The notes under the pieces are model-generated. The model was not told the origin of the DNA, ran no database searches, and saw nothing but the letters and a program-made list of their open reading frames with translations. Position numbers and translations under genes: made by a program. From Candidatus Dojkabacteria bacterium UBA2022 (GTDB taxonomy: Bacteria; Patescibacteriota; Dojkabacteria; SC72), in the NCBI GenBank assembly GCA_002335495.1, contig DDBW01000010.1, positions 1 through 54,754 on the forward strand: a stretch of DNA of 54,754 nt, given 5' to 3'. Each line of letters opens with the position of its first letter. Position 1 is the stretch's first letter. Positions 3,392 to 20,164 of the stretch are shown one piece after another.

Positions 3392-3406
3392 AGCAGTGAA
3401 GATGAA
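3392..3406. repeat. Left arm of perfect 15-bp inverted repeat (AGCAGTGAAGATGAA) flanking GC-rich cassette
   Basis: The exact reverse complement lies at 4340-4354. Confidence 0.7.
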
Positions 3407-3419
3407 GAAGGTCGAGTAA

Positions 3420-3451
3420 GCCACCACGGCATATGTATTAGCCGTGGTGGC
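3420..3451 (-). terminator. GC-rich hairpin downstream of the lipoprotein gene
   Basis: gccaccacggc / 10-nt loop / gccgtggtggc gives an 11-bp perfect stem, 15 nt past the stop at 3466. The U-tract on the minus strand is weak. Confidence 0.55.
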
Positions 3452-3465
3452 ACTCTCTTCAATTT

Positions 3466-4212
3466 TTAATGCTGCAATAAATCGCGGATGGTAACCCACT
3501 CCTTCTGCGCCTGAGCGCGGAATTCACGAGAATCCCATTCAACGATCATACAACCACCTCCAGAAGGTGCGCTTGGTAATTGCTTACCGATAATTTCAGC
3601 GACCTGAAAGTTCATGCCCCACCAGGCTTCATCAATCCCCAATGCAGGGTGAAGCGGTGCATATCCATGCGAACAATGGATAGATACGTATGAGGACATC
3701 GAACTGAACATGCTGGAAGAGATTGTGTCGCCGTTGCCGAAACGAACACGAACATGAGAGCGATACGGAGAGCCATCCATCGTGAGAAACTTCTCAAGAG
3801 TAAGGCTATTCGGATCGCAGATATCGGCACGACCGTCTTGCACATCGGTTGCTTCGTATAACCACTGAGGGCCAACGGCATTACCGACTTCGTCACAGAC
3901 AACATCATTACTGACAACAGTCTGGGACGGTAACACTACCGGGGTGGCACTCGCAGCCGACACAGGCACCGGAGTTTCATTGACAGGAGTAGATCCAGGT
4001 TGTAAACCCGAGCCTGCCCATAAAGCGGTTACGGTTTGTTCGACCGAGACAGCTTGCTGGGTACCTGCGATTTGCGTTTGAGCCATTTGAACTTCGTTGA
4101 GAGGTTCGGCTACAGGAGAATCATCACCTAAGCACGCGCTCACGAACAAAGCCAAGATGATTCCCAAAACGCTAAGGACAAAAATGTTAGAGCGGTAGAA
4201 CGGTTGTTTCAT
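3466..4212 (-). CDS. Predicted lipoprotein of unknown function in a GC-rich insert (248 aa)
   Basis: Taking the start at internal Met31 (ATG at 4212) gives MKQPFYRSNIFVLSVLGIILALFVSAC, a signal peptide with lipobox VSAC. The mature part has four further Cys. G+C is clearly above the flanks. Confidence 0.7.
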   Translation of the reverse strand: MKQPFYRSNIFVLSVLGIILALFVSACLGDDSPVAEPLNEVQMAQTQIAGTQQAVSVEQTVTALWAGSGLQPGSTPVNETPVPVSAASATPVVLPSQTVVSNDVVCDEVGNAVGPQWLYEATDVQDGRADICDPNSLTLEKFLTMDGSPYRSHVRVRFGNGDTISSSMFSSMSSYVSIHCSHGYAPLHPALGIDEAWWGMNFQVAEIIGKQLPSAPSGGGCMIVEWDSREFRAQAQKEWVTIRDLLQH

Positions 4213-4339
4213 TTCAATCTCCATTTCTTTTTGATCGTCGAGGTCTTCTTCGACGTTGATACAATACAAACTACTGTTAACAAGTAGTCTAAATAGTATC
4301 AACGCCTGTTAGAAATCGACGTTAGAAAAGGGGGAAACA

Positions 4340-4354
4340 TTCATCTTCACTGCT
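4340..4354. repeat. Right arm of 15-bp inverted repeat (TTCATCTTCACTGCT)
   Basis: Reverse complement of 3392-3406. Confidence 0.7.
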
Positions 4355-4477
4355 ATAACCTACAGTAATTGGAATAAAACCATACTGTAAGTATTTTTAA
4401 AGAACAGTCTAAATTAAATTAGACTATACCTCACGTGCATTATACTAAAAAGGGAAATATTTGTAAACTATAGGGTA

Positions 4478-5581
4478 TTATTTGAATAATGGAATACTCA
4501 CAGCTTCTTTAAAAGCTTTGAGACTATTGTACGAACTATTCACACTCCAGTTAATACCAGGATGAGTAGGGTCACTCTTATTTTCCAAAGTGATAATACC
4601 AACCAACCTTGGGTTATCCTGCATCATACGAATACATTCTGAAATCCATTCATCCTTAAGACCACCCCTCTCTGTAGAACCAAACTCAACAACAATTACA
4701 GGACGATCTATAGAACGAATTACACTGTACTGTTTAATATACTGCTCATCACACCTCTTCCATCTTCTATCACTAGGATTACCATCGGCTCCATGATTTA
4801 GAACTGTAAGACCAAGATAGTCTACATAGGTATCACCAGGATAGTATCTCAATGTTGTATCAGGCCAGAACATAACAGGGTTCCACATATACCTAACATT
4901 AAGGGCTCCTTCTTCTCTAAATATATCAACAATTCTTTGATATGCCTTCACATAGGCTTCAGGTCGTCCTTGCCATGGATACCAACTCTGTTCACCAGGA
5001 AAGGTAGACTGCTCATGACCGAACCTAAGAATATATAGAGACCCAAATGCTCTAGAAGCTCGAGCCCATTCTCTTATATACTCATCATGAAGACCTACTG
5101 ATATAGCTTCTAAACTATACTTAGTATCAATCAATGTGGGGTTCTTAAAATCTCTTTTCCAAGGTTCCCAAGTTACTATTGGAACAATATCTCTTTTATC
5201 AAGTTCATTTAGCAAGGCAGAAGGAAACTCTTTATCGAAATCATCCCAAGCTCTAAAAAGCAAAACAAACTGAAGACGATGACCTATTAGATTTTGATAC
5301 TTATCAATCTCGGAAACCTTAGTTTCATCAAAAAGTCCGAAAATGTAAGCTCCAAGACCAATTCTACCCAGGGGGTTAAGAGTAATATCGGGGTCGGTAA
5401 TAATAGGGGAGTCTGGGGTTCCAGTATTAACAGTAGTTAATCCACTTATTAAAAGAATCTCTGATTCAATTTTCCCAACAATGGAGTAGAATCTATCTGG
5501 ACCTAAAAATCTGTAGGTAAGCAGGATAGTGAAAAGGGCAACAACAATTGTGAATAGGAACCTGTATCTATTGCTATCCAT
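4478..5581 (-). CDS. Membrane-anchored clan GH-A glycoside hydrolase (GH26-like)
   Basis: There is an N-terminal TM helix. LRFGHEQS (acid/base HE) and VIVVEFGS (nucleophile EFG) have the spacing and pattern of GH26/GH5-type (beta/alpha)8 hydrolases. Confidence 0.55.
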   Translation of the reverse strand: MDSNRYRFLFTIVVALFTILLTYRFLGPDRFYSIVGKIESEILLISGLTTVNTGTPDSPIITDPDITLNPLGRIGLGAYIFGLFDETKVSEIDKYQNLIGHRLQFVLLFRAWDDFDKEFPSALLNELDKRDIVPIVTWEPWKRDFKNPTLIDTKYSLEAISVGLHDEYIREWARASRAFGSLYILRFGHEQSTFPGEQSWYPWQGRPEAYVKAYQRIVDIFREEGALNVRYMWNPVMFWPDTTLRYYPGDTYVDYLGLTVLNHGADGNPSDRRWKRCDEQYIKQYSVIRSIDRPVIVVEFGSTERGGLKDEWISECIRMMQDNPRLVGIITLENKSDPTHPGINWSVNSSYNSLKAFKEAVSIPLFK

Positions 5582-5657
5582 ATTACTATAGGTTGTTTTA
5601 AGTCTAAAATAGAGGTATAATTAAAGGCTAAATGATAATAACATATTTTATTGTTAG

Positions 5658-7229
5658 ATGAAGAATTTAGAAACAAGAACAATTGGATTGATACTATTGA
5701 TCAGCGGGGCTCTATACTTGAGCTGGGTCGTTGCACATATAAATACGCAGCACCTATGGTTCTCATTATTCTCACTGCTAATATCTGTATTCAGTGTAAT
5801 TTCAAGTATCCTTCTTGTTATAAACAACTGGTCATGGAAAAGACCGGTTATACATAAACTGGCTCACGGTAATGAGCCAAAGGTTGGAATTATTATCCCT
5901 ACATGGAGCGAAGATCCAAAATTAGTGCAAAGTGTAGCCAAGTCAGTATTGGCGCAGGACTACCCATTAGAAAAAATTGTACTTGTTATATCAGACGACG
6001 CTAGAAACGAGGAGCTAGAAGCCCTTACCTATCAATTAATGAACCAGTATCCTACAGCTAGCATCATATATCATACCCCTCCTAAAAAGGGAGATCCTTT
6101 GAGAAAAGGAGAGGGTAAAGCAGGTAATTTGAACTCAGCTTTAGAATTATTAAGCAGAGATCCAAGTATTCACTTTATAGAAACTAGAGATGCTGATGAC
6201 TTTGTTGTAGATAAGAACTTCTTAAGAATCGTTACCGCCCATCTCGTTAGAGATGAGAAACTTGCCTTTGTTCAAACAATAAAGAAGTCAAAAGTAAATG
6301 CGAATGATTCGTTCTCAAACAACGAGACTCTCTTCTACCACAGTTTGATGCTTTCAAAGAACGCAGCTAATGCAGTATTCCCTTGTGGATCAGGATTGCT
6401 ATGGAGAAAGGAAGCACTACTAGATATAGATGGATTCCCAAGCTGGAACTTGGTAGAAGACTTCCAATCAGGACTTGAGGCATTAAGAAGAGGGTGGAAA
6501 GGGGAGTTCGTTCCAATAGTTGGAGCATATACTAAAACCCCTCCTGAAGATATACCTAATGTATACAAACAGAGAGGAACATGGGCGGCAGATTCATTAA
6601 GATTGATGTTCTATTTAAATAAGAAGGGGTTAACATTAAGACAGAAGCTACATTTTATAGAACCCGGTTGGTTCTATATATTCTCAGGTGCATACTTCTT
6701 ATCAGGCCTTATACCTGTCATAACATTGATGTACGGAATTCTACCTGTAACTCAAGGTGGTTTTGACTACTTTATTAATGTAACTCCATATATATTATCA
6801 ACATACCTATTCTTACTCTCTCTTGATAGGAAACAAGGGGTAGGGCATAGGGATATAATGAATACCATAAGACTCGGCTTCCAACTCGGACCCGTATACT
6901 TTGGAAGCTTAATTAGAACCCTCATCTATGGAAAGCACAGAAAACCAGCATATAGATTAACAAGAAAATATAACAGACCTGGTATATACTTTGGTAAGAC
7001 ATTTACTCAAACCTTGATGACTGCATTGCTTATCTATGCAACGTACATCCACATAATGAACGCAGGAGGCGATATCACAAAAATAAACCTCTCTACACTA
7101 CCATGGGCCCTTACCCACATATACTTCCTTGGAGGAATGTTTAGACTTAGCGTTTACAAGTTTAATCCATTCAGATTGATTGGTGAAAACATTGGCCTTA
7201 TTCCTAAAACCAAACAAGCTTACCAATAG
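5658..7229 (+). CDS. Processive family-2 glycosyltransferase (cellulose/chitin-synthase-like polysaccharide synthase)
   Basis: IIIPTWSEDP, VISDD, RDADDF (DxD), VEDFQSG (xED) and QRGTW (Q-x-x-R-W type) occur in order, flanked by N- and C-terminal TM helices. Confidence 0.85.
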   Translation: MKNLETRTIGLILLISGALYLSWVVAHINTQHLWFSLFSLLISVFSVISSILLVINNWSWKRPVIHKLAHGNEPKVGIIIPTWSEDPKLVQSVAKSVLAQDYPLEKIVLVISDDARNEELEALTYQLMNQYPTASIIYHTPPKKGDPLRKGEGKAGNLNSALELLSRDPSIHFIETRDADDFVVDKNFLRIVTAHLVRDEKLAFVQTIKKSKVNANDSFSNNETLFYHSLMLSKNAANAVFPCGSGLLWRKEALLDIDGFPSWNLVEDFQSGLEALRRGWKGEFVPIVGAYTKTPPEDIPNVYKQRGTWAADSLRLMFYLNKKGLTLRQKLHFIEPGWFYIFSGAYFLSGLIPVITLMYGILPVTQGGFDYFINVTPYILSTYLFLLSLDRKQGVGHRDIMNTIRLGFQLGPVYFGSLIRTLIYGKHRKPAYRLTRKYNRPGIYFGKTFTQTLMTALLIYATYIHIMNAGGDITKINLSTLPWALTHIYFLGGMFRLSVYKFNPFRLIGENIGLIPKTKQAYQ

Positions 7230-7246
7230 AAAGTTCTAGATATTTA

Positions 7247-8413
7247 TTAAGCAGCGAGGGGAAGTGCTACAGCAGAGCTACCTGCCATATTCTTTTTGTT
7301 TGAATTACTTCCAGCATCAAACCCTCGTACTTTATCAATGATAGTCCATGTAAATGGTTGGTATCCGTAGGCATGATCCATGTAGGCTTGATTACCATCC
7401 TTAAGATCCCCGAAGGTTGTCATAGAGAAACCTTTACGTGCAAGATAGTCAACAAGAACCATCTGCGAAAAGTATGCGGAAGATTCATCCACTATATTTG
7501 CATAATAACCGTCACCGATCCAGGAGTCTTTATTCCTAGACGAAACGTACGAAGCGACATGAGCAACAACAGCAGGGAGCATAAACCATGGATTTACCCC
7601 TATTGCGAGCAATGTAGATGCAATTGTGACTCCGGATAGCATCATTCTCTGTAAGATAAACTTAACCCTTCTATTAATTAACTCAGGATTCTTAGCATGT
7701 ACATCCATATGAATTGCCTCGTGAGCAAGCGCACCTGCCGGAGTATTAATACCTTTAGTGCCTCCCGCATTAACCTTCCAGAAAGCTGCATCTCTAAGAT
7801 AGACATCCTTAGTATCAGTATTCGCAATTGTTAGTGGAGTAGCGGGATTTAATACGTATGCAAACCAGTGAGCTTTATGATAGTAAAGATCTCCAGACTT
7901 CATTAATGATGTAACATCAAAGGTGTTTCCACCCTGACCTCTTTGTAATATTTTAGGAATACTAACACCTTTGGCATTTGAACTTTTACCTTTAACATCA
8001 AAAACTACATCAACGGTGTCACCACCTAATACTTCGTAGTTAACTCTCAGATAACGACCATTAAATGAAGCCTTAAAATCTTTAGTATCAAAGGTCTTAA
8101 ACATTCCTTTAATATGTCTTTTAATCTCTGGATTTTCTGCAATAATCGCATTTTTGTCCATCCTGGAAATATCCTGAAGTTCAATATCAAACAAATCATC
8201 ACTATCTTCTAGTTTCTGCTCATTAAAATACTCTTTTGGTTCAAGCGCAGGTGTGATAACTCTTTCTGAGTATGTCTCAACAATATCATGGACAGGAGGA
8301 ATTGAATCTGAGACAAATTGTTGATCGATTCCTTTTGGTACGGCCCAATTCTTGCGAACATCTTCCCATCCCTGGGAAACAGCCATATTTGTAGTTTGCG
8401 AGGTATTAATCAT
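7247..8413 (-). CDS. HExxH protein with hydrophobic hairpin after the motif (putative membrane Zn-metalloprotease)
   Basis: LAHEAIHMDVH is followed by LSGVTIASTLLAIGV and FMLPAVVAHVASYV, then VDESSAY. This is the same layout as the 2374-3273 product. Confidence 0.5.
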   Translation of the reverse strand: MINTSQTTNMAVSQGWEDVRKNWAVPKGIDQQFVSDSIPPVHDIVETYSERVITPALEPKEYFNEQKLEDSDDLFDIELQDISRMDKNAIIAENPEIKRHIKGMFKTFDTKDFKASFNGRYLRVNYEVLGGDTVDVVFDVKGKSSNAKGVSIPKILQRGQGGNTFDVTSLMKSGDLYYHKAHWFAYVLNPATPLTIANTDTKDVYLRDAAFWKVNAGGTKGINTPAGALAHEAIHMDVHAKNPELINRRVKFILQRMMLSGVTIASTLLAIGVNPWFMLPAVVAHVASYVSSRNKDSWIGDGYYANIVDESSAYFSQMVLVDYLARKGFSMTTFGDLKDGNQAYMDHAYGYQPFTWTIIDKVRGFDAGSNSNKKNMAGSSAVALPLAA

Positions 8414-8473
8414 AGCCTATTATACCCTATAGTACTATCAATTTAAAGTATTTCACTATAAGGCTAAAAGTTA

Positions 8474-8502
8474 TTGACACTACACTAGGAAAGTGATTTT
8501 AT
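8474..8502 (+). promoter_or_regulatory. Candidate sigma70-type promoter for the 8539-18664 operon
   Basis: TTGACA (8474-8479), a 17-nt spacer, then TTTTAT (8497-8502). The -10 element is imperfect. Confidence 0.3.
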
Positions 8503-8538
8503 GTATAAGGGTTATAATAAATTTTTGACGACTGCCAA

Positions 8539-8880
8539 ATGGATTTACAACAATTAAACGAAGTGTTAAATCAGTTAGAAACCTACTTAGAATCAGCTTC
8601 AGAGGAGAGTATAAAGGAAGAGAATAAGGTATTTGTATACTCTGAAATTTCGAACTTAAGAGTTAATCCAACTCCTGAACACTTACAAACATTTATGGAA
8701 ACCTTAGGCCAGTACTTATACCTTCCTAAACAAGAAGTAATGAGCGAACCTCCAGTTATGGATCAGACACCTGCCGTGATGCCAGCAGTGACATCCCCAA
8801 CCGATGAAGACCAGAGGAAAATAGAGGAATTAGTTGCGAGTTTAAAGGCGTTGAGAAACACTTCTGAAGAGCCTGCATAA
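8539..8880 (+). CDS. Small acidic hypothetical protein (113 aa)
   Basis: E/D-rich ORF with no TM helix or signal peptide; first gene of the co-directional cluster. Confidence 0.55.
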   Translation: MDLQQLNEVLNQLETYLESASEESIKEENKVFVYSEISNLRVNPTPEHLQTFMETLGQYLYLPKQEVMSEPPVMDQTPAVMPAVTSPTDEDQRKIEELVASLKALRNTSEEPA

Positions 8881-8946
8881 GCAGATTGCACTTGAATATA
8901 AAGCTATGTATATTATTAATTGAATTAAATAAAAAAGAGAAGGTTT

Positions 8947-9426
8947 ATGAATAACTCTACAATATCTATTCTCGCTCAAGACTTGTTCAAGTTACTTGAT
9001 ATGGATGCCCTAGAAGCATCTGAAAAGGAGTTATTCCTAAGCGATTTCCTTAAAACGGTATCTAGATATTTCTTCCAAGAGAAGCTTGGAAAGGTTCTTT
9101 CCGCACAGGAGAAAGAGACACTAGCAACCAAATACGAATCATTGGACCAGGAAAACATATACGCACTGATGGAAGAGATGTCTAACAGAATTGAAAACGT
9201 AGAAGAGTTATATACGGAGGCGTTGGTATATGTAAAATCTCAGGTTGTTAAAGATTTCTATAAAGATAAAGTAGGTATGTTAGAGAAGTTGGTCGCAGAA
9301 GAGGAGGATGTAACAGTGAAGCAAAACCTCAGCTTTATGTTGAGCCTAGCCAAAAAGAAACTAGATTTTGCCTTGAATGAAAGGTACGATCAAATAATTA
9401 ACATATCTAATACAGAAGAAATATGA
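8947..9426 (+). CDS. Small acidic helical hypothetical protein (159 aa)
   Basis: Its stop overlaps the start of the giant gene (ATGA at 9423-9426). Confidence 0.6.
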   Translation: MNNSTISILAQDLFKLLDMDALEASEKELFLSDFLKTVSRYFFQEKLGKVLSAQEKETLATKYESLDQENIYALMEEMSNRIENVEELYTEALVYVKSQVVKDFYKDKVGMLEKLVAEEEDVTVKQNLSFMLSLAKKKLDFALNERYDQIINISNTEEI

Positions 9427-12400
9427 ACATGTCATCAGCACAGGGGGGGGAAAACAGTTCAGGAGTACCTTCATCATGGATACCTATAGAAGCCTTAAAT
9501 AATGCAGAGGCTGTTCAAAAATCACCTGGAGAGATGAGGGACTCTCTGCAAGCTTTAATGGATAAACTCGATAAGATCGGGGGTATGAACCCGACGGAAC
9601 TAGCTCAGAAATTCATCGGATTGCTGGATATGCTTGATAAAAATCAGGGTGAAAAACCTCCTGTAGAAATGCCACTCCTCGAAGAATCAAAAGATGTTAA
9701 GAAAGAAAATGGGAAGCTAGTAATTGAAGTCAAAGACCCAACCGTTACAGGGGAATTCGTAGGAAGCAATGGAAAATCCAAAGCGGAAGAGCTATTTATG
9801 GCTCTCACCAATAAGACAGAGGTAAAGACGGATCCAAAGCAAAATGCAACAAAACTAGATGTAGTTGCTGTTGTTCCTGTTGGCGGAAAGAATTCCAAAG
9901 TTGATATGGAGGTTGGCTTTAAACAAACTGCTAAAGGTCCTAAGGATGAAGGAGCTGGAACTGACGAGCTATCATTCGCTCCCCTGAATAAAGATGGCAA
10001 ACCTGATAACAGTAGAAGAATAGTGGTAAAGATTGAAAGAGGTCAAAATCCAAATGGTGTTCCCCAAACAAAAGTATTTCTTGAAATTGCACAACCAAAA
10101 GACCAATATAAACTCGGTGCTGACATTGGTGAGTTCGCCCAGAATGGTGAAGAGCTAGCAAATATTGAGAATGCCCTCCGAAGTCTAAGTGGTAAAAACG
10201 ACCCTTCATCTGAATTTATTAGAGGACAGATGATAGCCAGAAGAGATGCTATTCAACAAAGTATGGAGAAATCTGGAGTAAAAGAAGTAAAAGTAGATAA
10301 AGATAAGCAAACAAGAGAAGATTTAGCAAAAGTAGTCGGACTACTAAATGTCAAAAAAGGTGACATCCGATTATCACAAGATCCTGCAGCTCCACTTAAT
10401 GATGCCAATAAAGCTCAACTTAGTGCAATTGATGCTGTAAGGAAAGTTCTTGATATACCTGGTCAGCTTACAAATCCAAAGAGAAAACAGGAAAGTCGTG
10501 AAGCTGAAGCACCAGAAGCTGGATTATCAGACTTCTTGAGACAGTTACAGAAAGAACCTAACTTAAATGGGAACCCGCAACCAGCTAGAAACCCAGGAGA
10601 AGCAACCCCAGCAGCTCAACGGAAAACCGAGACAACAACCCAAGCAGAACCAGGAGTACAAACAGCTGAGGCAAAAGCCTTAAGAGAGAAGTCAAAAGAA
10701 GAATTGGTGGCAGAGTTTGATAAAGAGTTAGATGGTTTGAAGAAACTTAATGAAGAGAAGAGTAATCTTGAGACTAAGATTGCTGAACTCAAGAAGGCAG
10801 GAACTGAGGTACTATCAAAGGAAGACAAAGAAAAACTAACAGCACTTGAGAAAGAGCTAAAAGAAACTTCTGAAAAAATAGAAATCGTTAAAACCCTATC
10901 AGACCTAGGATTACTAAACTTCAAATCAGAAAAAGCAAGGACTCAGATAGGGACAGAAGTTATTAGCCCAGAAGACCTTGCTAACCTATCTCTAGCTAGA
11001 CTCTATGCACTTCTTGATGCTAATGCCACAGCACTTGCAAAGGAGATTGAGAAAGATAAAACAAAGGATCAGGCTAAAGTAGATAGACTTGCCAAGATAA
11101 AGTCTATAGCAGACTTTATGCTCAATACATCCAACGGCACTCATAAAAAATTCACAGATAAGGAATTCAAAGACCAGAAGGGTGTTGATGTTGTACTAGC
11201 ATGGTTGAATCAGTCACTAGAAAAGACAAACGACAACATAAAACCATTTAAGGATAAAGAAGCCGCAGGTAACGAGAAGGCAGCACTTAATGAGACTCAG
11301 ATTAAAGAACTTGAAGCCCAACTTGCAGAGGTAAACAAGAAGATCGCAGAATCAGAAACTAGAGCTCAGGCAATAATTGCCGCGCTAGCAGGTAAAATGG
11401 GAACAGAAGAGTGGCTACTACTAACTCAAAGACTTAACGATGCTCACGGAGGTAAATTTGAAGGGAAAGGGCCTGAAGTACCAGCTCAAGCAGAAGCCCA
11501 AGCTAATGCAGCTATCGCTGCAAATTGCCTACGAAAGATTGATCTAGACTTAGAACAGAGAGCGGAGCCAGAAACCTCAAAGGTAAAGAAATTCTTCAAG
11601 AGAGCCGCAGAGGTATTAACATCGGTATTCGGAGGTATCGCAGCAAGAACAGCCGTTAAAGCGATTGTAGTTGGTGCTCTAGGAATGACCCTCGGTGGAC
11701 CAGCAGGTCTTCTTGTAGGTGGTCTCGCAGGAGCTCTCGCAGGTGGAGCATCAAGCGCGATCTTCGGAACATGGATGCACTATAAAGTATTCCATAACGA
11801 TAAGATGCACGCTGTATATGCTGAAAATGCAAATCCAGGAAAAATGGATATCTTTAGGGGCAAGATCTATGAGAAAGCCAATGAAATATATGAGACACCA
11901 CAGAGAATTAAGAACATTGCCGCTGTATATAACAGTATTGTTTCAGGACAACTACAACCAAATCAACTAAACGATGAACAGAAGAAAGCTGTAATGGGAG
12001 TAGTTAAGGACTCAAGATTCATGAAATTAACAACCAACTACATTGGTGTTAACGGTCTAGGACTTGGAAACGACCTATTCAAAGCAGCCGATGGCAAAGG
12101 AATTGCTATCGAGGATGGATTAAGAGACTTTGCGACCAGATTTGATAACTTTGTAAATGCAGCTATTAATTCGAATCAGATCGCACAAGCAGATGTTGAA
12201 TCAACGCTTAAGAGTGCTGATGATGACGCTAAAGCTAAAGTTGATCAGGTAATTACCTCTGCATCATGGACTAAGTTCTTCAAGGGAGCTTTGATCGGTG
12301 GTGTATCAGGCTTCTTGGCGCAAGGAATCAGCAACGCACTCGAAGGACAAACCTTCTGGGGTGGTGAAGTTATAAATGCAGATTCAACAACAGCTGTAGC

Positions 12401-14690
12401 AGCAGATACAACTCTAACACCAGAACAGGTAACGGACTTAAATAAGGAAGTTGCTGAGATTGCTCAGAAGCATGGAGCTGAACAGGTACAGTTCCTTAAA
12501 GATACATACAACTTAACAGATGATCAGACTGCAGAGCTTCTTAAAGGATTCGATGCAAATGGAGATGGTATGTTTGCAGGTAACGAAATTGTTCAACTAC
12601 AAGCAAATCTTGATCAACAGTTTGGAATCGTAATTCCTAATGCAGAGGCCGCAACTACGATGACTGGCAATTGGGAAGCTCCATTCAATGGAACTCTCGG
12701 TAAAGAGCTACCAAGTGAATGGACTGAGACATGGACTAAAGGAATATACAGTGTAGGTAGAGGCCATAACTTCGCAGGAGCTGAGTTCAGTTTGAACGGA
12801 ACTCCAGGAGTTGGTGGAGACCACTATGCATTAGCAAAAGCTTTGCAGTATATGTCACATAATGTACCTGCAGAGAACATGAATACAGAGGAAGCCGGAA
12901 TAATGGTATCTCATCTATACGGAACTCTCCTTACGGAATCGGGTTCACAGATGAGTGATGCTCAGATTGCAGAATTTGCAGGAAGAGTAGCAGAGAGATA
13001 TGCAGGAACTGAATTTGATATGTCTGGATTATTTGTACCAGGAGGAGCTACTGAAACGATAACTACAACCGTAACTGAAGGAACTAGTGTAGACGGTCTC
13101 TTGATGCCTTGGTACGCAGCAGTGAACGAAACTCAATCATTGGTAAATACAATGATTGGTGAGAATGCACCAGGAGTAGCGGGTGGAGTAGCTAACAAAG
13201 TTGGTGACTTTATAGTTGAATCAACAAGAAAGGTGTCTGAACTTGGAACAACAGGTGCACTAGCAGGAATGGGTATTTCTATGTGGGCTGCTAATATGTA
13301 CACACCAGAGAATAGAGAGTTTGGACAGAGGACTGATGAACAGAAGAAAGATCAGGGAACTGGTGGCAATACAGGGCAGGGTGGAGCAACAACAGGTGGA
13401 CAGCAAACACCTCCAAATAATACAGGTACTCCTCAAGCACCAACAGGAGCAGGACAACAGACGACAGAGCAGGGAGGACCAAAACCAGCAGATAATAATC
13501 CAACAAATGGAGTACCAGGAGCAAGTCCAGTACAGCCAGTAGCAGCAACCGTAGGAGCAACTAACGCGAATCAAGTACCAGGTGGAGTAGGTATTAAACC
13601 TCTTACGTCACAAGGATATGAAATTTCGACGAATGTAACAACAGGTAGACTAATTGCACCATCACAAACATGGAGAGAGCAGTCCGGCCAACTTAGTGAA
13701 TTTGCACTAAACCACGGTAAGCTTAATGCGCTGAGAGTGGTGGGAGCTAAACTTGCCAGTGGTCTTTGGGAAGCTTCAACCGCATTGGTAAGAGGAAGGA
13801 ATCCATTCAAGAATCAATTAAATCAAGAGATTATTAATAGCGTAAAGGTTAATAACTCTCTAGCAGTCCTTGATACAAAGAACAATCAAGTTGTTGAAAG
13901 TAGGTTTAACGTAGCAGGTTTAAGAGCTGATGAAATGGAACAAGCCGTAGGTCAACAGATTATCAATATGAAAGAGGATATTCGAGGAATGCTTAAAGGA
14001 TATATCAAACAAGCTCTTAATATTGAATTCGGAAATGGAGCGAATACATTAACTGTTGCAGAAGGTAGGGATCAAGTACATCCTTCCGATAACGAAGCCC
14101 TTAAGCTCTTCTTAAGAGAGAACAAGGACACCAAGATTAATGATGAGATGGTGGACGCGTTCATGAACTTGATGATTATTCTTAACGACCCAAATAACTA
14201 TAATCAAAACGCAAGTAAATTAAATACTAAGGGTCAAGCAGAGTTTGAAGCAATTGCACAATTGATGCTTGATAGAGAGAAGCAGTGGTATGCAATACTT
14301 CCAGGTAAAGCAAGTGCAAAGATCAATACGGAGTATAGAGGAATGCCATTAGTAGTATCAGACGCAATAATCAGATCAGCTTTGGAGCTATCAGGATTCA
14401 AACTAACTGACGAGATGAGAAAATCCGCTCAGTACTTTACAAACATTGATCAAATGAGTCGAAGCGCTGGCTACTTAGATCCAAAGGGAGGATTCTTCAA
14501 CGCATTACAAGCAATAAGACACTCTCAAGAGATTAGGGGAGGAAGATTAGGAACTCCTGTAGCAAGAGTCGAGGGAACGCCAGTACAGCAGGTACAAGCC
14601 AATGAAACAGACCCAGTTCCTCCAACAATAAATCTAGTATGGGACGAAAGAGCTACCAAACCAACTGGCGCAAGGCGAGTTATAGTCTAG
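9423..14690 (+). CDS. Giant 1755-aa protein: coiled coils, Gly-zipper TM hairpin, EF-hand loop, Q/G/T/P low-complexity linker
   Basis: A single uninterrupted ORF. Heptad-like K/E-rich stretches fall at about 10680-10900 and 11280-11400. The hydrophobic hairpin IVVGALGMTLGGPAGLLVGGLAGALAGGASSAIFG lies at about 11600-11790. DANGDGMFAGNE (12552-12587) fits the EF-hand loop consensus. A low-complexity region spans about 13330-13590. There is no Sec signal. Confidence 0.85.
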   Translation: MNMSSAQGGENSSGVPSSWIPIEALNNAEAVQKSPGEMRDSLQALMDKLDKIGGMNPTELAQKFIGLLDMLDKNQGEKPPVEMPLLEESKDVKKENGKLVIEVKDPTVTGEFVGSNGKSKAEELFMALTNKTEVKTDPKQNATKLDVVAVVPVGGKNSKVDMEVGFKQTAKGPKDEGAGTDELSFAPLNKDGKPDNSRRIVVKIERGQNPNGVPQTKVFLEIAQPKDQYKLGADIGEFAQNGEELANIENALRSLSGKNDPSSEFIRGQMIARRDAIQQSMEKSGVKEVKVDKDKQTREDLAKVVGLLNVKKGDIRLSQDPAAPLNDANKAQLSAIDAVRKVLDIPGQLTNPKRKQESREAEAPEAGLSDFLRQLQKEPNLNGNPQPARNPGEATPAAQRKTETTTQAEPGVQTAEAKALREKSKEELVAEFDKELDGLKKLNEEKSNLETKIAELKKAGTEVLSKEDKEKLTALEKELKETSEKIEIVKTLSDLGLLNFKSEKARTQIGTEVISPEDLANLSLARLYALLDANATALAKEIEKDKTKDQAKVDRLAKIKSIADFMLNTSNGTHKKFTDKEFKDQKGVDVVLAWLNQSLEKTNDNIKPFKDKEAAGNEKAALNETQIKELEAQLAEVNKKIAESETRAQAIIAALAGKMGTEEWLLLTQRLNDAHGGKFEGKGPEVPAQAEAQANAAIAANCLRKIDLDLEQRAEPETSKVKKFFKRAAEVLTSVFGGIAARTAVKAIVVGALGMTLGGPAGLLVGGLAGALAGGASSAIFGTWMHYKVFHNDKMHAVYAENANPGKMDIFRGKIYEKANEIYETPQRIKNIAAVYNSIVSGQLQPNQLNDEQKKAVMGVVKDSRFMKLTTNYIGVNGLGLGNDLFKAADGKGIAIEDGLRDFATRFDNFVNAAINSNQIAQADVESTLKSADDDAKAKVDQVITSASWTKFFKGALIGGVSGFLAQGISNALEGQTFWGGEVINADSTTAVAADTTLTPEQVTDLNKEVAEIAQKHGAEQVQFLKDTYNLTDDQTAELLKGFDANGDGMFAGNEIVQLQANLDQQFGIVIPNAEAATTMTGNWEAPFNGTLGKELPSEWTETWTKGIYSVGRGHNFAGAEFSLNGTPGVGGDHYALAKALQYMSHNVPAENMNTEEAGIMVSHLYGTLLTESGSQMSDAQIAEFAGRVAERYAGTEFDMSGLFVPGGATETITTTVTEGTSVDGLLMPWYAAVNETQSLVNTMIGENAPGVAGGVANKVGDFIVESTRKVSELGTTGALAGMGISMWAANMYTPENREFGQRTDEQKKDQGTGGNTGQGGATTGGQQTPPNNTGTPQAPTGAGQQTTEQGGPKPADNNPTNGVPGASPVQPVAATVGATNANQVPGGVGIKPLTSQGYEISTNVTTGRLIAPSQTWREQSGQLSEFALNHGKLNALRVVGAKLASGLWEASTALVRGRNPFKNQLNQEIINSVKVNNSLAVLDTKNNQVVESRFNVAGLRADEMEQAVGQQIINMKEDIRGMLKGYIKQALNIEFGNGANTLTVAEGRDQVHPSDNEALKLFLRENKDTKINDEMVDAFMNLMIILNDPNNYNQNASKLNTKGQAEFEAIAQLMLDREKQWYAILPGKASAKINTEYRGMPLVVSDAIIRSALELSGFKLTDEMRKSAQYFTNIDQMSRSAGYLDPKGGFFNALQAIRHSQEIRGGRLGTPVARVEGTPVQQVQANETDPVPPTINLVWDERATKPTGARRVIV

Positions 14691-14724
14691 AGAGAAGTAA
14701 GAGTAGTAACAATACTGGGTAGTA

Positions 14725-14753
14725 TTGACCTAAATAACAACCTATAGTATAAT
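14725..14753 (+). promoter_or_regulatory. Near-consensus sigma70 promoter upstream of GC-rich ORF
   Basis: TTGACC (14725-14730), a 17-nt spacer, then TATAAT (14748-14753). Confidence 0.45.
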
Positions 14754-14803
14754 ACAACTAAGATATTTTGATATATCTTGGCTCTTTTAGAACCTCAGGT
14801 TTA

Positions 14804-14851
14804 GTATCATACTAACAACTTTGATTGCCCCCAGAATTGTTAGTATGATGC
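14804..14851 (+). promoter_or_regulatory. Long hairpin in the 5' leader of the GC-rich ORF
   Basis: ATCATACTAACAA (14806-14818) pairs with TTGTTAGTATGAT (14837-14849). Two more pairs extend the stem, and the loop is 18 nt. Confidence 0.45.
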
Positions 14852-14899
14852 CATTGGCATCTTTGTATCCACCCTTTCAATTTGACATAGGAGGTCAAA

Positions 14900-15358
14900 A
14901 TGGGTTTTTTCGATTTTCTCAAGAAGCAAGGTACGGAAAGTGCTACAGTTCGTGCAGCTCGCGCATCCGGAGGGAATGTAAGCGGTTACGTTGTATGCGT
15001 AAACCTCTTGGATGATGCACTCACGGCAGCGGCAGCAGCATCAGGAATTCGTTTCCGCCCTGGCGCAAGAGAGCGTATTCGTGCAGCTCTGCGTGCAGAG
15101 ATTTCCGCTGAAGGAACTGATCAGGTCGTGCTCAATCAGACCCTCAGAACCATCATGACGGAAATGTTTCAGCAGGGAAATCCTGTTCCTTCGATGCCAA
15201 GTGCTTTTACGCCCTCACCTGCCATTCCTCCCGGATACCAACTTGTCCCTTTGGCTACTCAAGTAGCAACTCCTCCCCCCCCCGCAATGGTATGGGAAGA
15301 AGAAACAAAGGAAGAACAAGGTCCGGAAAAGAAAAGCAAGAAAGCCAAGAAGGTGTAA
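14900..15358 (+). CDS. GC-rich hypothetical protein (152 aa), Ala/Pro-rich with Lys-rich tail
   Basis: A GGAGG Shine-Dalgarno sits 6 nt before the ATG. Codon usage is visibly GC-shifted compared with the neighbours. Confidence 0.6.
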   Translation: MGFFDFLKKQGTESATVRAARASGGNVSGYVVCVNLLDDALTAAAAASGIRFRPGARERIRAALRAEISAEGTDQVVLNQTLRTIMTEMFQQGNPVPSMPSAFTPSPAIPPGYQLVPLATQVATPPPPAMVWEEETKEEQGPEKKSKKAKKV

Positions 15359-15370
15359 TGCCACAACCTG

Positions 15371-15417
15371 AGGACCGGATGGTTGCAAAGATTTTATATC
15401 AGCAACCATTCGGTTCT
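15371..15417 (+). terminator. 16-bp stem hairpin after the GC-rich ORF
   Basis: 15371-15386 pairs with 15402-15417 (two G-U pairs), with a 15-nt loop. A moderately U-rich tail follows. Confidence 0.5.
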
Positions 15418-15480
15418 CTACTTGTTTACACAAGTAACCCTAAATGTTATCTTGTATAAGAAAGTTAAGAACCGAAATAA

Positions 15481-16737
15481 ATGAAGCCCACTAGAGAAAA
15501 GAATGCCCCTTCGTATCACGTAGATGTTCTTGGTTATAATGCAAACGTCGTAGAGGATGGACCAAGCATGACCAACAATAACTCAAGACCTTTAGGGGCA
15601 GGAGGAGAAGCAAAAGTTAAACACTACAGAGTGCATGATGAAGAAGGTGTCACACACGACAGGGCAATAAAGATTTTTCATCCACCATTCACGAGATTAG
15701 CTGAGAATAATCAACTAATCGAACTACAACCCAGTGATTTACCTCAAAACGAATTGGGAATCGAACTCAGTAAACCTGCCTATATTGTGGCATCTAATGC
15801 CCGATTTTGTGGCAATATTCATAATCCACAAAAGATAAAAAGTATAATCAATAGCAATGAAGATAAGTTACGAGATTTGGGAATCCAGGCATACCACCTT
15901 CGACAGCTACAAGAATCGTTTGGCAGCACTAGTGAAATAAATACACAGGGGTTTTTAAATTTTTTAAGATTTCGAGCGCAGCAAGTAGGAGACTTTGCGG
16001 CTTTGCAAAGGATTCCGCCAAGAATAGACATGCCAAAAGACTACGATCAGGGAATGATCCAAGCCATGAATAAAATGGCAAGATGGGCTAGCAAAAACTT
16101 TCCAAACCTAATGATTCCAAAACAACTTTTTCCGGAATTTTTACAGTTCGGAGTACTTGATGAAAGATATGGTGAAGATGCAGGAAAGTTTTATGTTGTG
16201 ATGGAGTATGTACCAGAGACCCTTACCTCGAAAATTGAGACCGGACTGTCAACAATTGAACGCTCAAATCTAAACGCAGGTGCAAGCATGGAAGACCCAT
16301 CAGGAATCGTAAGTGCAGTTACGCATATAATAAATTCTCAATTACCTATGCACAAACTTACTCAATTACAAACGGTAATTCAAATTATTCACTCTTTTGG
16401 ATTCGTATTCGGAGATTTAAAAAGAGGAAATATAGGATTCTTGAAGGATGGAAATATAACTCTACTTGATCCAAGTTCAATGATTAGGATTGGTACGATA
16501 CAGGATTTTGCTACAGAAGAATTTTTGCCAGAAGACCAACAAGCCCTAATGCGATTTGGACAACTCAGAGGAAAGCCGGACAATGACATTTACGCCTTAA
16601 ACCTGATTTTACAAAAGGTGAAACAAGATATGGCGAGAAGCTTACAATTGGGAATGGGATTTGATAAAGTTATAAAGGATGAGGATAAATCACACGAGAC
16701 AGCGACATTTAGAGCTAAACTTTTAAGAAACTTATAA
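15481..16737 (+). CDS. Atypical eukaryotic-like Ser/Thr protein kinase-fold protein
   Basis: G39-A-G41-G-E-A44-K-V46 (GxGxxGxV-like), A-I-K64, hinge-like VVMEYV, G-D312-L-K-R-G-N317 (DLKxxN), and D330-P-S exactly 18 residues after D312 at the DFG position. About 150 extra residues lie between K64 and the catalytic loop. Confidence 0.6.
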   Translation: MKPTREKNAPSYHVDVLGYNANVVEDGPSMTNNNSRPLGAGGEAKVKHYRVHDEEGVTHDRAIKIFHPPFTRLAENNQLIELQPSDLPQNELGIELSKPAYIVASNARFCGNIHNPQKIKSIINSNEDKLRDLGIQAYHLRQLQESFGSTSEINTQGFLNFLRFRAQQVGDFAALQRIPPRIDMPKDYDQGMIQAMNKMARWASKNFPNLMIPKQLFPEFLQFGVLDERYGEDAGKFYVVMEYVPETLTSKIETGLSTIERSNLNAGASMEDPSGIVSAVTHIINSQLPMHKLTQLQTVIQIIHSFGFVFGDLKRGNIGFLKDGNITLLDPSSMIRIGTIQDFATEEFLPEDQQALMRFGQLRGKPDNDIYALNLILQKVKQDMARSLQLGMGFDKVIKDEDKSHETATFRAKLLRNL

Positions 16738-16738
16738 C

Positions 16739-18664
16739 ATGGGACTCGGCCTTAAAATTGAAAACTTCTTCCTCTCTGGAGATGCAAGACTTGCACTGCA
16801 GAAAAGGGTGGATGCAAGTCCCGAACAAGATATTGATACTCTCTCAAAGTTCAATAAAGCAAAATCAGAAAAACTTCCATTGAAGGATACATTTGGGAAC
16901 CTTGAAATACCAGCATACGAAGTTACTACAAACATACCCAGTACAACAAAGGGAAAGCATCTGGGGATAATTCAAATACATCCAAATGGAGAAGAGGAGC
17001 TACCATACCAAAGCATAGGTTTTGATCCTGAACGTGATCCAACTCCTAGGGAAAAACTAAAAGGAGGGGGAGCGAAGGTAATAGATATCTCGATGAAAGG
17101 ATGTAGGATTATAGGTATAAACCGCCCAGCAATTGGAGCTCAACATCCAGTACAGGATGCAAGTGGAGTAACTTTCTATCGATCAAAGGGCGGAGACATA
17201 CATATTGGATTACATGTCTGCGATGGTAATACTGGTCTAGAGATTTCAGAAGATGAGCTAAGTCCATCACAAAAAGACAAGTATATTAAAACGAAAAGAT
17301 ACGATAAAACTTCTGTCAAAATTATTGGGGAGTCAGAGTATTACTCCACTCGAGGGGCACGAAACAGCTCGAGATCAATTCTAGAAGGGAGTGCAAATGC
17401 AGCTAGGTTTCTTGTTAATCACTTTGTAGAGGAGAGACAGGAAATGGGAATAGAAACTCCAAAGGGAGGTTCTACCTTACAGGCTACAAGGTTAGTAATC
17501 GGCAAAAAAAATATGTTAATAGATGCCACATGCCTTGGAGTAGACTCAAGGACAGCACCTAATGGAGTAGGAGACTTAGGTTATATGGCATTGGTAACAA
17601 AAGAAAAGGGGATAGAAATGATAGACATCCAGGGTAATTCGGAATTTGACTTATCCCATGACCCAGTCAGGTCAAGGTATGGTTTCGATATAATTCAACC
17701 TACTATTCAGACTGAGGTCAGTAAGGGAATATTTATAATAACAACCGATGGATTTAAACTGGATGATAACGGAATTAAAAAGCTTACTCAAGTAGTTAAT
17801 AACCCCGATTCCGCAGAAAGAGTTCGTCAATTACAAAATAAGGATCTACTTACAGAGATTTTTGGAGCAAGTTATGACGATGGAACATGTTGGATAGTAA
17901 TGTCAACTGAGAATAGTCCTAACGCTATTACTAGAAGACAAGAACGGGCTATGCAAGTGGAGACCACTAGCAGTGAAATCATTAAAAACTTAGATGCGAT
18001 AAAGGAACAAAGTAAGACATTTTTAAAAATAAACTATGCAGAGGTATCAACAGAAGTAGAAGAGTTTGAAAGATTACTTAGGGCGAAAACGAGCCCCTCT
18101 GATAAAATGCAAGGACTTCAAACTAGGTATGAACATATTTCAGGAACCCTCAAAGAGATGGTGGATCTTGAGCTAACTGTCGCCAGAATTGAGGCGCAGA
18201 TTAACCTTATACATGTAACTGATACGATAACAAATAACCTAACTAATTACCAAGTTGACGACCGCCTTGCCGGCTTTCTAAGACTACTTTATACTGATAA
18301 ACCTGGCAGTATACCTAAAAAAGTCTCCAACCCTAAGGATAGAGAAGTTTTAGCTAATATAATAAACGTTCTGGAAGTAAATAGTATAATTGAATTTAAA
18401 GGTAAATCAGGGAAGGAAATTCTGGAAAACTTTAGGAAAACAGGCGACAGTGACTCACTCAAACAGCTTATTGGTAGAATTAAAAACAGACCAAGCTCAG
18501 ACTCGATTGAGTTAGTAATACAAGCAACAAAAAATGGTGGTAAATCTAAAAAATCCATTACAGCAAGTCATAGAGAGACCTCAAAAGCATTATTTGATTC
18601 TGCAAGTAGCAAACTATCTGAACTTGAGAGGCAAATACAGGCGATGAGAGAGACTAAGATTTGA
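16739..18664 (+). CDS. PPM/PP2C-like phosphatase domain fused to C-terminal coiled-coil region
   Basis: In order: VQDAS; HVC-D162-GNTG (xxDGxGG); GGSTLQATRLVIG...CLGV-D269-SR (GTT...GDSR); IITT-D337-GF (SDGL); Y-D380-D381-GTCWIVM (DNiTvvv). The ATG lies 1 nt after the kinase stop. Confidence 0.5.
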   Translation: MGLGLKIENFFLSGDARLALQKRVDASPEQDIDTLSKFNKAKSEKLPLKDTFGNLEIPAYEVTTNIPSTTKGKHLGIIQIHPNGEEELPYQSIGFDPERDPTPREKLKGGGAKVIDISMKGCRIIGINRPAIGAQHPVQDASGVTFYRSKGGDIHIGLHVCDGNTGLEISEDELSPSQKDKYIKTKRYDKTSVKIIGESEYYSTRGARNSSRSILEGSANAARFLVNHFVEERQEMGIETPKGGSTLQATRLVIGKKNMLIDATCLGVDSRTAPNGVGDLGYMALVTKEKGIEMIDIQGNSEFDLSHDPVRSRYGFDIIQPTIQTEVSKGIFIITTDGFKLDDNGIKKLTQVVNNPDSAERVRQLQNKDLLTEIFGASYDDGTCWIVMSTENSPNAITRRQERAMQVETTSSEIIKNLDAIKEQSKTFLKINYAEVSTEVEEFERLLRAKTSPSDKMQGLQTRYEHISGTLKEMVDLELTVARIEAQINLIHVTDTITNNLTNYQVDDRLAGFLRLLYTDKPGSIPKKVSNPKDREVLANIINVLEVNSIIEFKGKSGKEILENFRKTGDSDSLKQLIGRIKNRPSSDSIELVIQATKNGGKSKKSITASHRETSKALFDSASSKLSELERQIQAMRETKI

Positions 18665-18841: not shown

Positions 18842-20164
18842 CTACTTCAACGGATGCTTCTCTTTATGCACTTCCTGTGCAAACCTATCCGATGCATGTA
18901 CGTATCTAGTAGTGGTATTCAAACTCTCGTGACCCAGTAGAACCTGAATAGCCGCAGGACTAGCTCCATTTTCAGCTAAATAAGTTGCAAAACCGTGCCT
19001 TAAACTATGCGCAGAAGTTGGAACAAGAATACCTAATCTTCTTCTATAATTTGCAATACACTCCTGAAAATAGTTCGTAGATAATCTCGCATTATCCTGT
19101 TTAGATCTACTTCCGCTGAAAGGAATAAACAGGGCAGGGGAGGAAAACCTATTTAAATACCCACTCTTCCTATACTCCTCAACCGCCCTCACATACTTCC
19201 ATCGATGATCCATACCACCAACCAAATCAATATTTAAACCCTGTTTTTCTTCTATTCCCCCAGATGTTTCACGAACCGTAGTAATATGATTCAACCTTAC
19301 CTCTAAGTATTTATCCAGCCAATCTATAGCCCTAGGCGTTAAATATACAAACCTTTCCTTTTTCCCTTTACCTTTAATAAACAGCTTACCATCCAAGTTA
19401 ATCTGATCCAAATTCAAGTTTATTAACTCTGAAATACGCATACCTGTAGAAAAAAGAAGCTCCATCATAGCTCTATTACGAATCCCAACCTCACGATCAT
19501 GCTCAAACTCTAATGGAGATTCAATTAACCTCACAAGATCTTCCAATTCAGCCACCTGAGACTTCTTACGATCAGCCTTAATCAGTTTAATAGCATCAGG
19601 CGGAATTGGAACTTCAATATCTCTGTCTATTAAAAATTTCAAGTAAGATCTCAAAGCACTCAACATACGATTTACACTACGAGCATCCAAACCATTCTCA
19701 GATCGACTCGATGCATTCTTAGGCTTCCCATATATTCCCAGTGACCCGAACACCTTGCGATACACGTCATCCAGGAACTTACCCTTAAACTCAGTACTTT
19801 CCAAACTTCCCCCAGGTGTTGTTACAGCCCCCTGAGTACTATCGTGCGTTCTAGACCCCTCAGAGCCCTTCGAGGTATCTTTTGTCGTACCTAAGCCGTT
19901 TTTCAAGTATCTAACCCTCAAATTATCCAAATCTGTCAGATGATCTCCATTCCTTAAGTACCCTTTATACAATGTAATGGTCTCTTTATCTATCTTCTCA
20001 AAATCCCGACCGTTAACATCTATAAAAACGGCAAAGATACTCAAGTCACGTGCATAGTTAAGTACAGTTTGCATACTGTAATTGTTATTCTGAAGCTCAA
20101 GCAAGAAGGAATCCTGAATAGGTAGTTTAGGAATAGCCTCGTTGACAGTTTTTTGATTAGACAT
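18842..20164 (-). CDS. Tyrosine recombinase (XerC/XerD-integrase family) with about 100-aa insertion after the N-terminal domain
   Basis: GMRISEL (Arg), HSLRHGFAT (H-x-x-R), LLGHESL and TRYVH (catalytic Tyr) are present. A Ser/Thr/Gly-rich insert spans aa 90-165. Confidence 0.85.
   Translation of the reverse strand: MSNQKTVNEAIPKLPIQDSFLLELQNNNYSMQTVLNYARDLSIFAVFIDVNGRDFEKIDKETITLYKGYLRNGDHLTDLDNLRVRYLKNGLGTTKDTSKGSEGSRTHDSTQGAVTTPGGSLESTEFKGKFLDDVYRKVFGSLGIYGKPKNASSRSENGLDARSVNRMLSALRSYLKFLIDRDIEVPIPPDAIKLIKADRKKSQVAELEDLVRLIESPLEFEHDREVGIRNRAMMELLFSTGMRISELINLNLDQINLDGKLFIKGKGKKERFVYLTPRAIDWLDKYLEVRLNHITTVRETSGGIEEKQGLNIDLVGGMDHRWKYVRAVEEYRKSGYLNRFSSPALFIPFSGSRSKQDNARLSTNYFQECIANYRRRLGILVPTSAHSLRHGFATYLAENGASPAAIQVLLGHESLNTTTRYVHASDRFAQEVHKEKHPLK

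Follow-up and report, generated by a model that had tools for sequence, protein, structure and literature searches.

A family of giant proteins with a conserved Gly-zipper core, an EF-hand signature and a small partner in a variable envelope locus of Dojkabacteria

Introduction

Several described systems recall parts of the protein encoded by the giant gene P0001, which is located at positions 9423-14690 (+) of contig DDBW01000010.1 of Candidatus Dojkabacteria bacterium UBA2022. The whole contig of 54,754 nucleotides was analysed and is called the window below. The protein can be compared with the glycine-zipper hairpin families (C19orf12-like PF20721; SlyB / Rick_17kDa type). These share with P0001 a Gly/Ala-rich helix-turn-helix with repeated GxxxG motifs. 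However, they are small, while the hairpin of P0001 is central in a chain of 1,755 amino acid residues that has two more hydrophobic helices and large arms. The match to C19orf12 is weak (E 0.0014, 18.9 bits compared with a cut-off of 30), with one of 15 family members matching, and SlyB was found among the noise-level structural matches (Z 6.3, 23% identity over 62 residues).

The EF-hand proteins (calmodulin; Pfam EF-hand_1/5/6/7) correspond to P0001 in a loop with D1, N3, D5, G6, a hydrophobic residue at position 8 and E12, placed between helices. EF-hands are normally paired, while that of P0001 is single and lies inside an acidic domain between two putative membrane helices of a giant protein, and about a third of the relatives have a degenerate form of its loop. 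The eukaryotic calcium sensor STIM1 of the endoplasmic reticulum offers a loose functional analogy, in that a non-cytoplasmic EF-hand is linked across the membrane with long coiled coils in the cytoplasm and with a disordered tail. There is no homology, however, and in STIM1 a single membrane helix is combined with an EF-SAM pair and a signal peptide.

The type III translocators (YopB/IpaB/SseC) and the chlamydial Inc proteins are also similar in architecture. Coiled-coil regions, an internal hydrophobic hairpin, the lack of a Sec signal and a small acidic protein encoded directly upstream are found in P0001 as well, and the bilobed hydrophobic domain of about 40-60 residues in Inc proteins corresponds to P0001 residues 731-785. 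However, no sequence match, type III apparatus or TPR-type chaperone was found for P0001, which is 3-10 times larger and belongs to a Patescibacterium and not to a diderm pathogen. The Inc proteins are secreted in a type III-dependent manner by intracellular Chlamydiae, while the genome carrying P0001 is of the Dojkabacteria type.

This genome belongs to an ultra-small uncultured bacterium of the 0.8-Mb Patescibacteria/Dojkabacteria type, and its assembly (816 kb in 22 contigs) is 94% complete. Patescibacteria represent a large share of bacterial diversity, and their envelope organisation and host attachment are mostly unknown. The present analysis describes a protein family with a conserved core, an EF-hand signature, a small partner protein and a variable locus. 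From these features we infer the topology, calcium binding and function of P0001, and tentatively propose, as the likeliest of the readings considered, that it resides in the membrane of the producing cell as a four-helix protein. Together with its partner it could form an envelope-linked scaffold or transducer whose outside domain would depend on calcium. A literature search returned no description of the family. New here are the adjacent partner, the strain-variable island with its cassette replacement, a remote second family (type B) and the topology analysis.

Family and conserved core

The gene P0001 is an intact open reading frame of 1,755 codons for amino acids. A first-pass annotation of the window, prepared without database searches, had singled out this giant frame, and the features that it listed along the chain were found at the positions it gave. 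The nearest full-length homologue, P0002, has 1,742 residues and a residue identity of 37% in a word-index search (37-39% over the full length). An exhaustive profile search with the core alignment in 1.84 billion representatives identified only 14 true relatives, with E-values from 3e-18 to 4e-278. They range in size from 1,202 to 2,462 residues, the shortest being cut by a contig end, and the core is found in the middle of each. All of them come from Patescibacteria/Dojkabacteria, the named ones from 'Patescibacteria group bacterium' and 'Candidatus Dojkabacteria bacterium'. Giants of the family number about 14, P0001 among them, with lengths of 1,249-2,462 residues.

The order of the core is shared: a basic helix, the Gly-zipper hairpin, a helical domain of about 160 residues, helix 3, the acidic EF-hand domain and helix 4. 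In P0001, conservation and hydropathy place the basic juxtamembrane helix (KVKKFFKR) and the Gly-zipper hairpin with its GGPAG turn at residues 715-785 (11565-11777, +). The hairpin segment proper, residues 731-785 (nt about 11613-11777), consists of two lobes around the turn. Its Kyte-Doolittle mean over 19 residues peaks at 1.86, its Gly content is 24%, and it contains five GxxxG motifs. It is the bilobed hydrophobic segment that the first-pass annotation had placed at about nt 11600-11790. The conserved helical domain between helices 2 and 3, residues 786-948 (11778-12266, +), opens with the motif HY-x-x-F-H ... E-N and is probably cytoplasmic. Its net charge is about 0, with 13-24 Lys and Arg residues in every member.

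The third hydrophobic, Gly-rich helix, residues 949-974 (12267-12344, +), contains the motif K-G-A-x-I-G-G-x-x-G and has a Kyte-Doolittle value of 1.2. It is followed by the acidic domain between helices 3 and 4, residues 975-1272 (12345-13238, +), which has a net charge of -26 and is predicted to face outside. The fourth helix, residues 1273-1293 (13239-13301, +), is weakly hydrophobic and Gly-rich and precedes a Y-x-P-E/D motif. These two helices account for the two further hydrophobic stretches that had been noticed in the first reading of the window.

The identity between P0001 and P0002 varies along the chain, from about 80% in the helices and juxtamembrane parts to 20-31% in the arms. 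It is 81% for residues 715-830, and 80% both for the helix 3 stretch (946-980) and for the fourth helix (1271-1300). The invariant or nearly invariant residues across the 15 sequences are G774 in helix 2, Y787, F790 and E801 just past helix 2, T871, then K954, G955, G959 and G963 in helix 3, and G1049 and E1055 in the EF-hand loop. Since the helices and their flanks are the best conserved part, they are likely to be the functional heart of the protein rather than a mere anchor.

The protein has no match above the cut-off in Pfam, NCBIfam, PHROGs or PADLOC, with which its neighbours were scanned too, and no match in PDB as a single sequence. At E<0.1 the Pfam and NCBIfam scan contains only the weak C19orf12 match and a weak HtdO match. 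In a set of 14 proteins (12 relatives, a near-identical copy of the G039 giant, and P0001) the only Pfam domains at E<=0.001 are coiled-coil noise, represented by ZapB, TolA_bind_tri and DUF4164 in one member each. A tape measure or SMC-like identity finds no support in the family models: PHROGs gave no match, and neither P0001 nor its relatives match an SMC or tape-measure Pfam family. The assignment to such a known family, which the first reading had named as the outcome that would speak against its view, was thus not obtained, and no other family or fold rises above noise. The P0001 family is undescribed, restricted to Dojkabacteria and unclassifiable with current families. Its novelty is of this kind and is not that of a demonstrated new mechanism.

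The AlphaFold model of the core has a mean predicted local distance difference test (pLDDT) value of 59. Its sole high-confidence part consists of residues about 791-950 (model residues about 111-270), with pLDDT of 75-94, while the EF-hand region has values of 61-79; for the model of the C-terminal domain the value is 54. In Foldseek against PDB, the searches with these two models gave best E-values of 0.29 and 0.52. The best Z-values in VIA-align against 48,161 chains were 7.0 and 6.1, in a range common for helical models. The ESM Atlas shape search reached a template modelling (TM) score of no more than 0.23 by query, and the Atlas feature search with the core had a best score of 0.78, which is noise. 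With regard to tape measure and SMC-like structures, these fold searches, which covered the chain beyond the N-terminal 680 residues, yielded helical matches at noise level only.

The EF-hand

A single EF-hand helix-loop-helix is located at residues about 1031-1066 (12513-12620, +). Its loop, DANGDGMFAGNE, spans residues 1044-1055 at nt 12552-12587, precisely where the first-pass annotation had located an EF-hand loop. This is a canonical 12-residue loop with D1, N3, D5, G6 and E12, in which position 8 is hydrophobic. The pattern used in that annotation fits the loop and arises in 104 of 20,000 shuffles of P0001 (0.5%). The loop is retained across the family: eight of the 15 members have it in canonical form and two more in near-canonical form, while it is degenerate in the rest, and the Glu at position 12 is invariant in all 15.

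Single sequences fall under the Pfam EF-hand cut-offs. The family profile, however, matches calmodulins at E 3.4e-6, aligning to EF-hands 3-4, and its consensus is a textbook E-helix, loop and F-helix. Against PDB the same profile found calmodulin-type EF-hands only. About 70 further weak matches among the 1.84 billion representatives are multi-EF-hand proteins, aligned at the EF-hand positions only. In the AlphaFold model the loop is flanked by helices at model residues 353-363 and 373-387, with pLDDT of 64-79. Only one EF-hand is recognisable; in one relative, that of G007, another loop follows about 45 residues downstream. The acidic domain 975-1272 thus carries a predicted EF-hand of the calcium type, which may bind calcium.

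The small partner protein

Directly upstream of the giant gene is a gene for a protein of 159 amino acid residues (8947-9426, +), which is acidic and all-helical and has neither a membrane helix nor a signal peptide. Its TGA stop overlaps the ATG of the giant gene (ATGA), and the two genes appear to be translationally coupled. Eight loci are covered by DNA, and in each of them a homologue of the partner directly precedes the giant (phmmer E 1e-12 to 3e-35). In the survey of 221 genomes of the class, the partner is present in each of the five genomes that carry the giant and in one further genome, whose contig ends 310 bp beyond the partner gene.

The partner and its seven orthologues have no family and no meaningful TPR signal (TPR_6 reaches E 0.36 in one of these eight proteins), and the word-index search with the partner returned only itself. 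Its ESM Atlas model has a predicted TM score of 0.82. A relation to the Wzz polysaccharide co-polymerases (Wzz/PCP) was considered: the Atlas model compared with Wzz helical domains gives a TM score of 0.57, and WzzE and Wzc are among the weak matches. This similarity was too weak and was not used.

The variable envelope locus

Envelope genes are found at every locus of the family, namely VanY, a sortase, a GT2 glycosyltransferase, a GT-C protein of about 1,200 residues (AftD-like) and LytR_C. On the far side of the gene pair there are a Xer-type recombinase, RuvABC, YebC and a HerA/TrwB-like ATPase. The P0001 family occurs in only five of the 221 genomes and is absent from both genomes of the same genus. 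Of 21 surveyed loci, 14 have no such giant within about 19 kb of Xer, and the giant of one more (G216, 1,132 residues) is unclassified.

VanY (1094-1972) and the Xer-type recombinase (18842-20164) enclose a section of about 16.6 kb (2054-18664), in place of which the same-genus genome G001 (locus L014) has other sequence. In the window this island contains a cellulose-synthase-like GT2, a GH26-like gene, a HExxH membrane protein and the giant operon. The flanks in G001 are similar, MFS being 86% and Xer 82-83% identical, and about 16 kb between VanY and Xer have no blastp match to the window. The island of G001 holds a gene of 146 codons followed by one for a signal-less protein of 1,171 residues with Gly-rich hydrophobic hairpins. 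A comparison by hhalign identifies the 146-residue protein as a distant homologue of the partner (probability 87%, E 3.8e-6). For the 1,171-residue protein, no link was found to either of the two giant families.

From the patchy presence and the replacement at conserved flanks it follows that the giant and its partner form a cassette-like accessory module of this flexible envelope island, and neither a core gene nor a classical mobile element. The tyrosine recombinase suggested a mobile island at first sight, but it is the conserved Xer-type enzyme, found in 61 of 66 genomes of the bacterial family at 50-83% identity over the matched stretch, and no other mobility gene is nearby. The giant gene occupies 0.6% of the 0.8-Mb genome, is lineage-restricted and is exchanged as a cassette among close relatives, which suggests that it is costly, useful and niche-specific.

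A patchy, swap-prone gene in a variable island might also serve in phage defence. The helices would then form oligomers in the membrane of the cell itself, as a gated and perhaps calcium-dependent Gly-zipper pore opened for suicide when the arms sense infection. Gly-zipper motifs are typical of homo-oligomeric channels; they are present here in the conserved helices, and the membrane core is the conserved part of the protein. However, P0001 matches nothing in PADLOC or PHROGs, it contains neither a nuclease or NTPase domain nor any other domain of an effector or sensor, and no defence gene was recognised nearby. We regard a defence channel as very improbable.

Membrane topology

The N-terminus of P0001 is non-hydrophobic, the top Kyte-Doolittle 19-residue mean within residues 1-100 being 0.39. 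This agrees with the lack of a signal peptide described in the first-pass annotation. The distribution of charges was compared in 15 members. In the 20 or so residues ahead of helix 1 there are one to six Lys and Arg residues (four to six in 12 of the 15), after helix 2 there are one to nine, and ahead of helix 3 two to five. The domain between helices 3 and 4 is acidic in all 15, with a net charge from -9 to -83. The flanks predicted to be cytoplasmic are therefore rich in Lys and Arg, matching the positive-inside rule for insertion into the cell's own membrane. Together with the missing signal peptide and an N-terminal arm of about 730 residues, this pattern fits a topology with the N-terminus inside, the hairpin returning inside, helix 3 leading out, helix 4 leading in and the C-terminus inside. 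Such a four-helix topology would leave both long arms in the cytoplasm.

It may instead be that only the hairpin enters the membrane, with 'helices' 3 and 4 being amphipathic and either soluble or peripheral. P0001 would then be a hairpin-anchored, mostly cytoplasmic coiled-coil scaffold of the cytoskeleton or of division, and its EF-hand a cytoplasmic sensor. The weak hydrophobicity of helices 3 and 4, the long helical K/E-rich regions and the neighbouring Xer recombinase, HerA/FtsK-like ATPase and RuvABC all agree with this. However, it leaves unexplained a sharp, family-wide switch to strongly acidic sequence exactly between helices 3 and 4, as well as the conservation of about 80% and the Gly-zipper motifs of these two helices. 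The module is also missing from most relatives, unlike a core division factor. For these reasons the hairpin-only arrangement appears unlikely.

In the four-helix arrangement of a resident protein that we favour, the N-terminal arm of about 730 residues, made up of the variable and the K/E-rich helical regions, would lie in the cytoplasm. A basic amphipathic helix would lead into the tight Gly-zipper hairpin, which dips into the membrane and back, and the helical domain of about 160 residues would sit on the inner face. Helix 3 would pass outward, so placing the acidic EF-hand domain of about 300 residues outside, where calcium is plentiful. Helix 4 would return inward, and the disordered linker and the 365-residue C-terminal domain would be cytoplasmic. 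Beyond anchoring, the membrane helices could pack through their Gly zippers, self-associate or contact another membrane component. A calcium-dependent outside domain would in this way be coupled to large, fast-evolving cytoplasmic platforms, within a strain-variable island of cell-surface glycan genes.

Several points weigh against this proposal. In a simple additive version of the Hessa translocon scale, the four helices have values from +0.4 to +12 kcal/mol, and since all are positive, autonomous Sec insertion is not assured; SecY is encoded in the genome. Helices 3 and 4 are weak across the family, with Kyte-Doolittle values of 0.3-1.9 and 0.4-1.9, respectively. The AlphaFold confidence is low for the membrane helices themselves, and the assignment of these helices and of the coiled coil is based on hydropathy, composition, charge and a crude heuristic. 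The tie to the glycan genes is positional only. In addition, patchiness and replaceability are unexpected of a mostly cytoplasmic giant. The conserved membrane core, the EF-hand, the obligate partner and the defined variable locus provide handles for experiment.

A second giant family

At the same Xer-adjacent site in four other genera there are signal-less giants of 1,299-1,783 residues, called type B, each with its own partner of about 160 residues. The type B loci are L015 10123-15967, L030 11312-17038, L025 1377-6516 and L016 2173-6576. They resemble the P0001 locus in the small-then-giant gene order and in the position adjacent to Xer. However, the P0001 family is not detectable from the type B giants by HMMER, these giants have extra C-terminal helices, and their partners have no detectable similarity to the P0001 partner. 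A remote similarity of the giants is seen in hhalign (probability 85%, E 5.8e-6, 166 columns) over the WK motif, the Gly hairpin and the next helices. The type B giants also carry a calcium-type loop D-x-D-G-D-G (DLDGDG-type).

Secretion and host interaction

The first-pass annotation had hinted at pore-forming translocators and inclusion-membrane effectors. This hint finds no support, as type III and type VII parts and a chaperone-family signal are lacking in the searches and the flanks are positive-inside. The FHIPEP (SctV/FlhA) type III gate was not found in the 94%-complete genome, while control genomes were detected; an incomplete assembly does not prove absence. Type VII secretion was rejected, since WXG100 was not found in the same genome and only one single-domain FtsK-type ATPase was found. 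Given the charge pattern and the missing type III and type VII parts, the resemblance to translocators and Inc proteins is therefore architectural only.

A broader possibility is an effector secreted or delivered by contact. In this case the acidic partner would keep the giant soluble, export would perhaps proceed through VirB4/VirD4-like ATPases, and the helices would insert into a host membrane after translation. The lack of a signal peptide in P0001 and the translationally coupled small, acidic, helical partner could be explained in this way. The marginal hydrophobicity of all the helices would also fit, as such hydrophobicity has been described for exported membrane-inserting proteins. A patchy distribution and cassette-like replacement between close relatives are typical of interaction genes, and there is a VirB4-like ATPase elsewhere in the genome as well as the TrwB-like ATPase in the window. 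However, besides the missing type III and type VII parts, the partner has no TPR or CesT-type signal, and the whole family keeps the positive-inside pattern. Conservation is highest in the helices, while the arms that would face the host are without a recognisable domain, and no toxin or enzyme domain was found across the 14 relatives. Genomes that lack the giant also keep the TrwB-like gene in this neighbourhood. A delivered effector is accordingly considered unlikely.

Taken together with type B, the pairs of a small partner and a giant could represent a new class of host-interaction device in episymbiotic bacteria belonging to the Candidate Phyla Radiation (CPR). The Gly-zipper helices of a chaperoned, signal-less giant would insert into the membrane of the partner organism as a calcium-dependent conduit or anchor. 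If this were true, the swapping of cassettes from strain to strain would set host specificity. We consider such a device decidedly doubtful.

Arms, linker and C-terminal domain

The regions outside the core of P0001 are less conserved. The N-terminal variable region, residues 1-420 (9423-10682, +), has no hydrophobic stretch, is 26% identical to P0002 and is probably cytoplasmic; among the relatives, the sequence N-terminal of the core ranges from about 360 to about 1,500 residues. Next is a helical, heptad-like region rich in K, E, A and L, residues 421-700 (10683-11522, +), which is assigned from its composition and has 29% identity to P0002. It contains 14.6% K, 13.2% E, 13.2% A, 12.1% L and 1.4% P. 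A crude heptad heuristic gives segments at 426-466 and 616-655, so that the K/E heptad-like stretches reported in the first reading are recovered in both composition and heptads.

A low-complexity Q/G/T/P linker, residues 1301-1390 (13323-13592, +), contains 22% G, 16% T, 13% Q and 12% P and is 21% identical to P0002. The C-terminal domain that follows (13593-14687, +) was expected to have about 390 residues; the linker was found as described, while the domain has 365 residues instead. It is common to only part of the family and has 31% identity to P0002, with a range of 28-36% for P0002, P0006, P0011, P0013 and a fragment from G007. Searched alone, this domain gave no stand-alone homologue.

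Neighbouring genes

The first gene of the same-strand run codes for an acidic protein of 113 residues (8539-8880, +). Its only blastp and phmmer match is a 115-residue gene product of G009, the closest relative, and since it is common to that genome only, it is probably not a core part of the module. The HExxH protein of 388 residues (window 7247-8413, -) has homologues near the module in G009 (387 residues) and L010 (423 residues), at 24% identity, and may travel with the module of P0001 (type A).

Downstream of the giant gene there are a kinase-like gene of 418 codons (15481-16737) and a gene of 641 codons (16739-18664), both common only to the closest relative G009. Other loci carry at this position a Trans_reg_C protein or a true PP2C+FHA protein. 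Since only the closest relative has the two genes and others carry Trans_reg_C, they do not belong to the core module. The kinase signals of the 418-residue protein are weak: Pkinase at E 0.03, the LanL kinase part at E 2.6e-4, and PKC-theta and YabT at E 0.1-0.4 (PDB). The 641-residue protein, labelled PP2C-like, has no PP2C match at E<0.1. In the Dojkabacteria relative at locus L009 (16821-19103), a genuine PP2C+FHA protein of 760 residues is encoded directly after the giant gene, which hints at Ser/Thr phospho-signalling beside some family members.

The promoter and terminator scan overall was not above shuffles. A near-consensus sigma-70-type promoter, TTGACC-17-TATAAT (11 of 12 matches), is located at 14725-14753, between the giant gene and an open reading frame of 152 codons. 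The HerA/TrwB-like ATPase of 834 residues (window 24476-26980, -), which is annotated as DUF8128 in relatives, adjoins YebC-RuvCAB-Xer in the carriers of type A giants. It looks like a core protein and not like part of a conjugation system.

At a distance from the module, an AMP-phosphorylase-like gene and an IF-2B-type gene (ribose-1,5-bisphosphate isomerase-like) are located side by side (window 45807-48281, -). This pair is a signature of the CPR nucleoside/RuBisCO pathway and is typical of the Dojkabacteria group. An earlier report describes this pathway for Dojkabacteria (PMC5113843).

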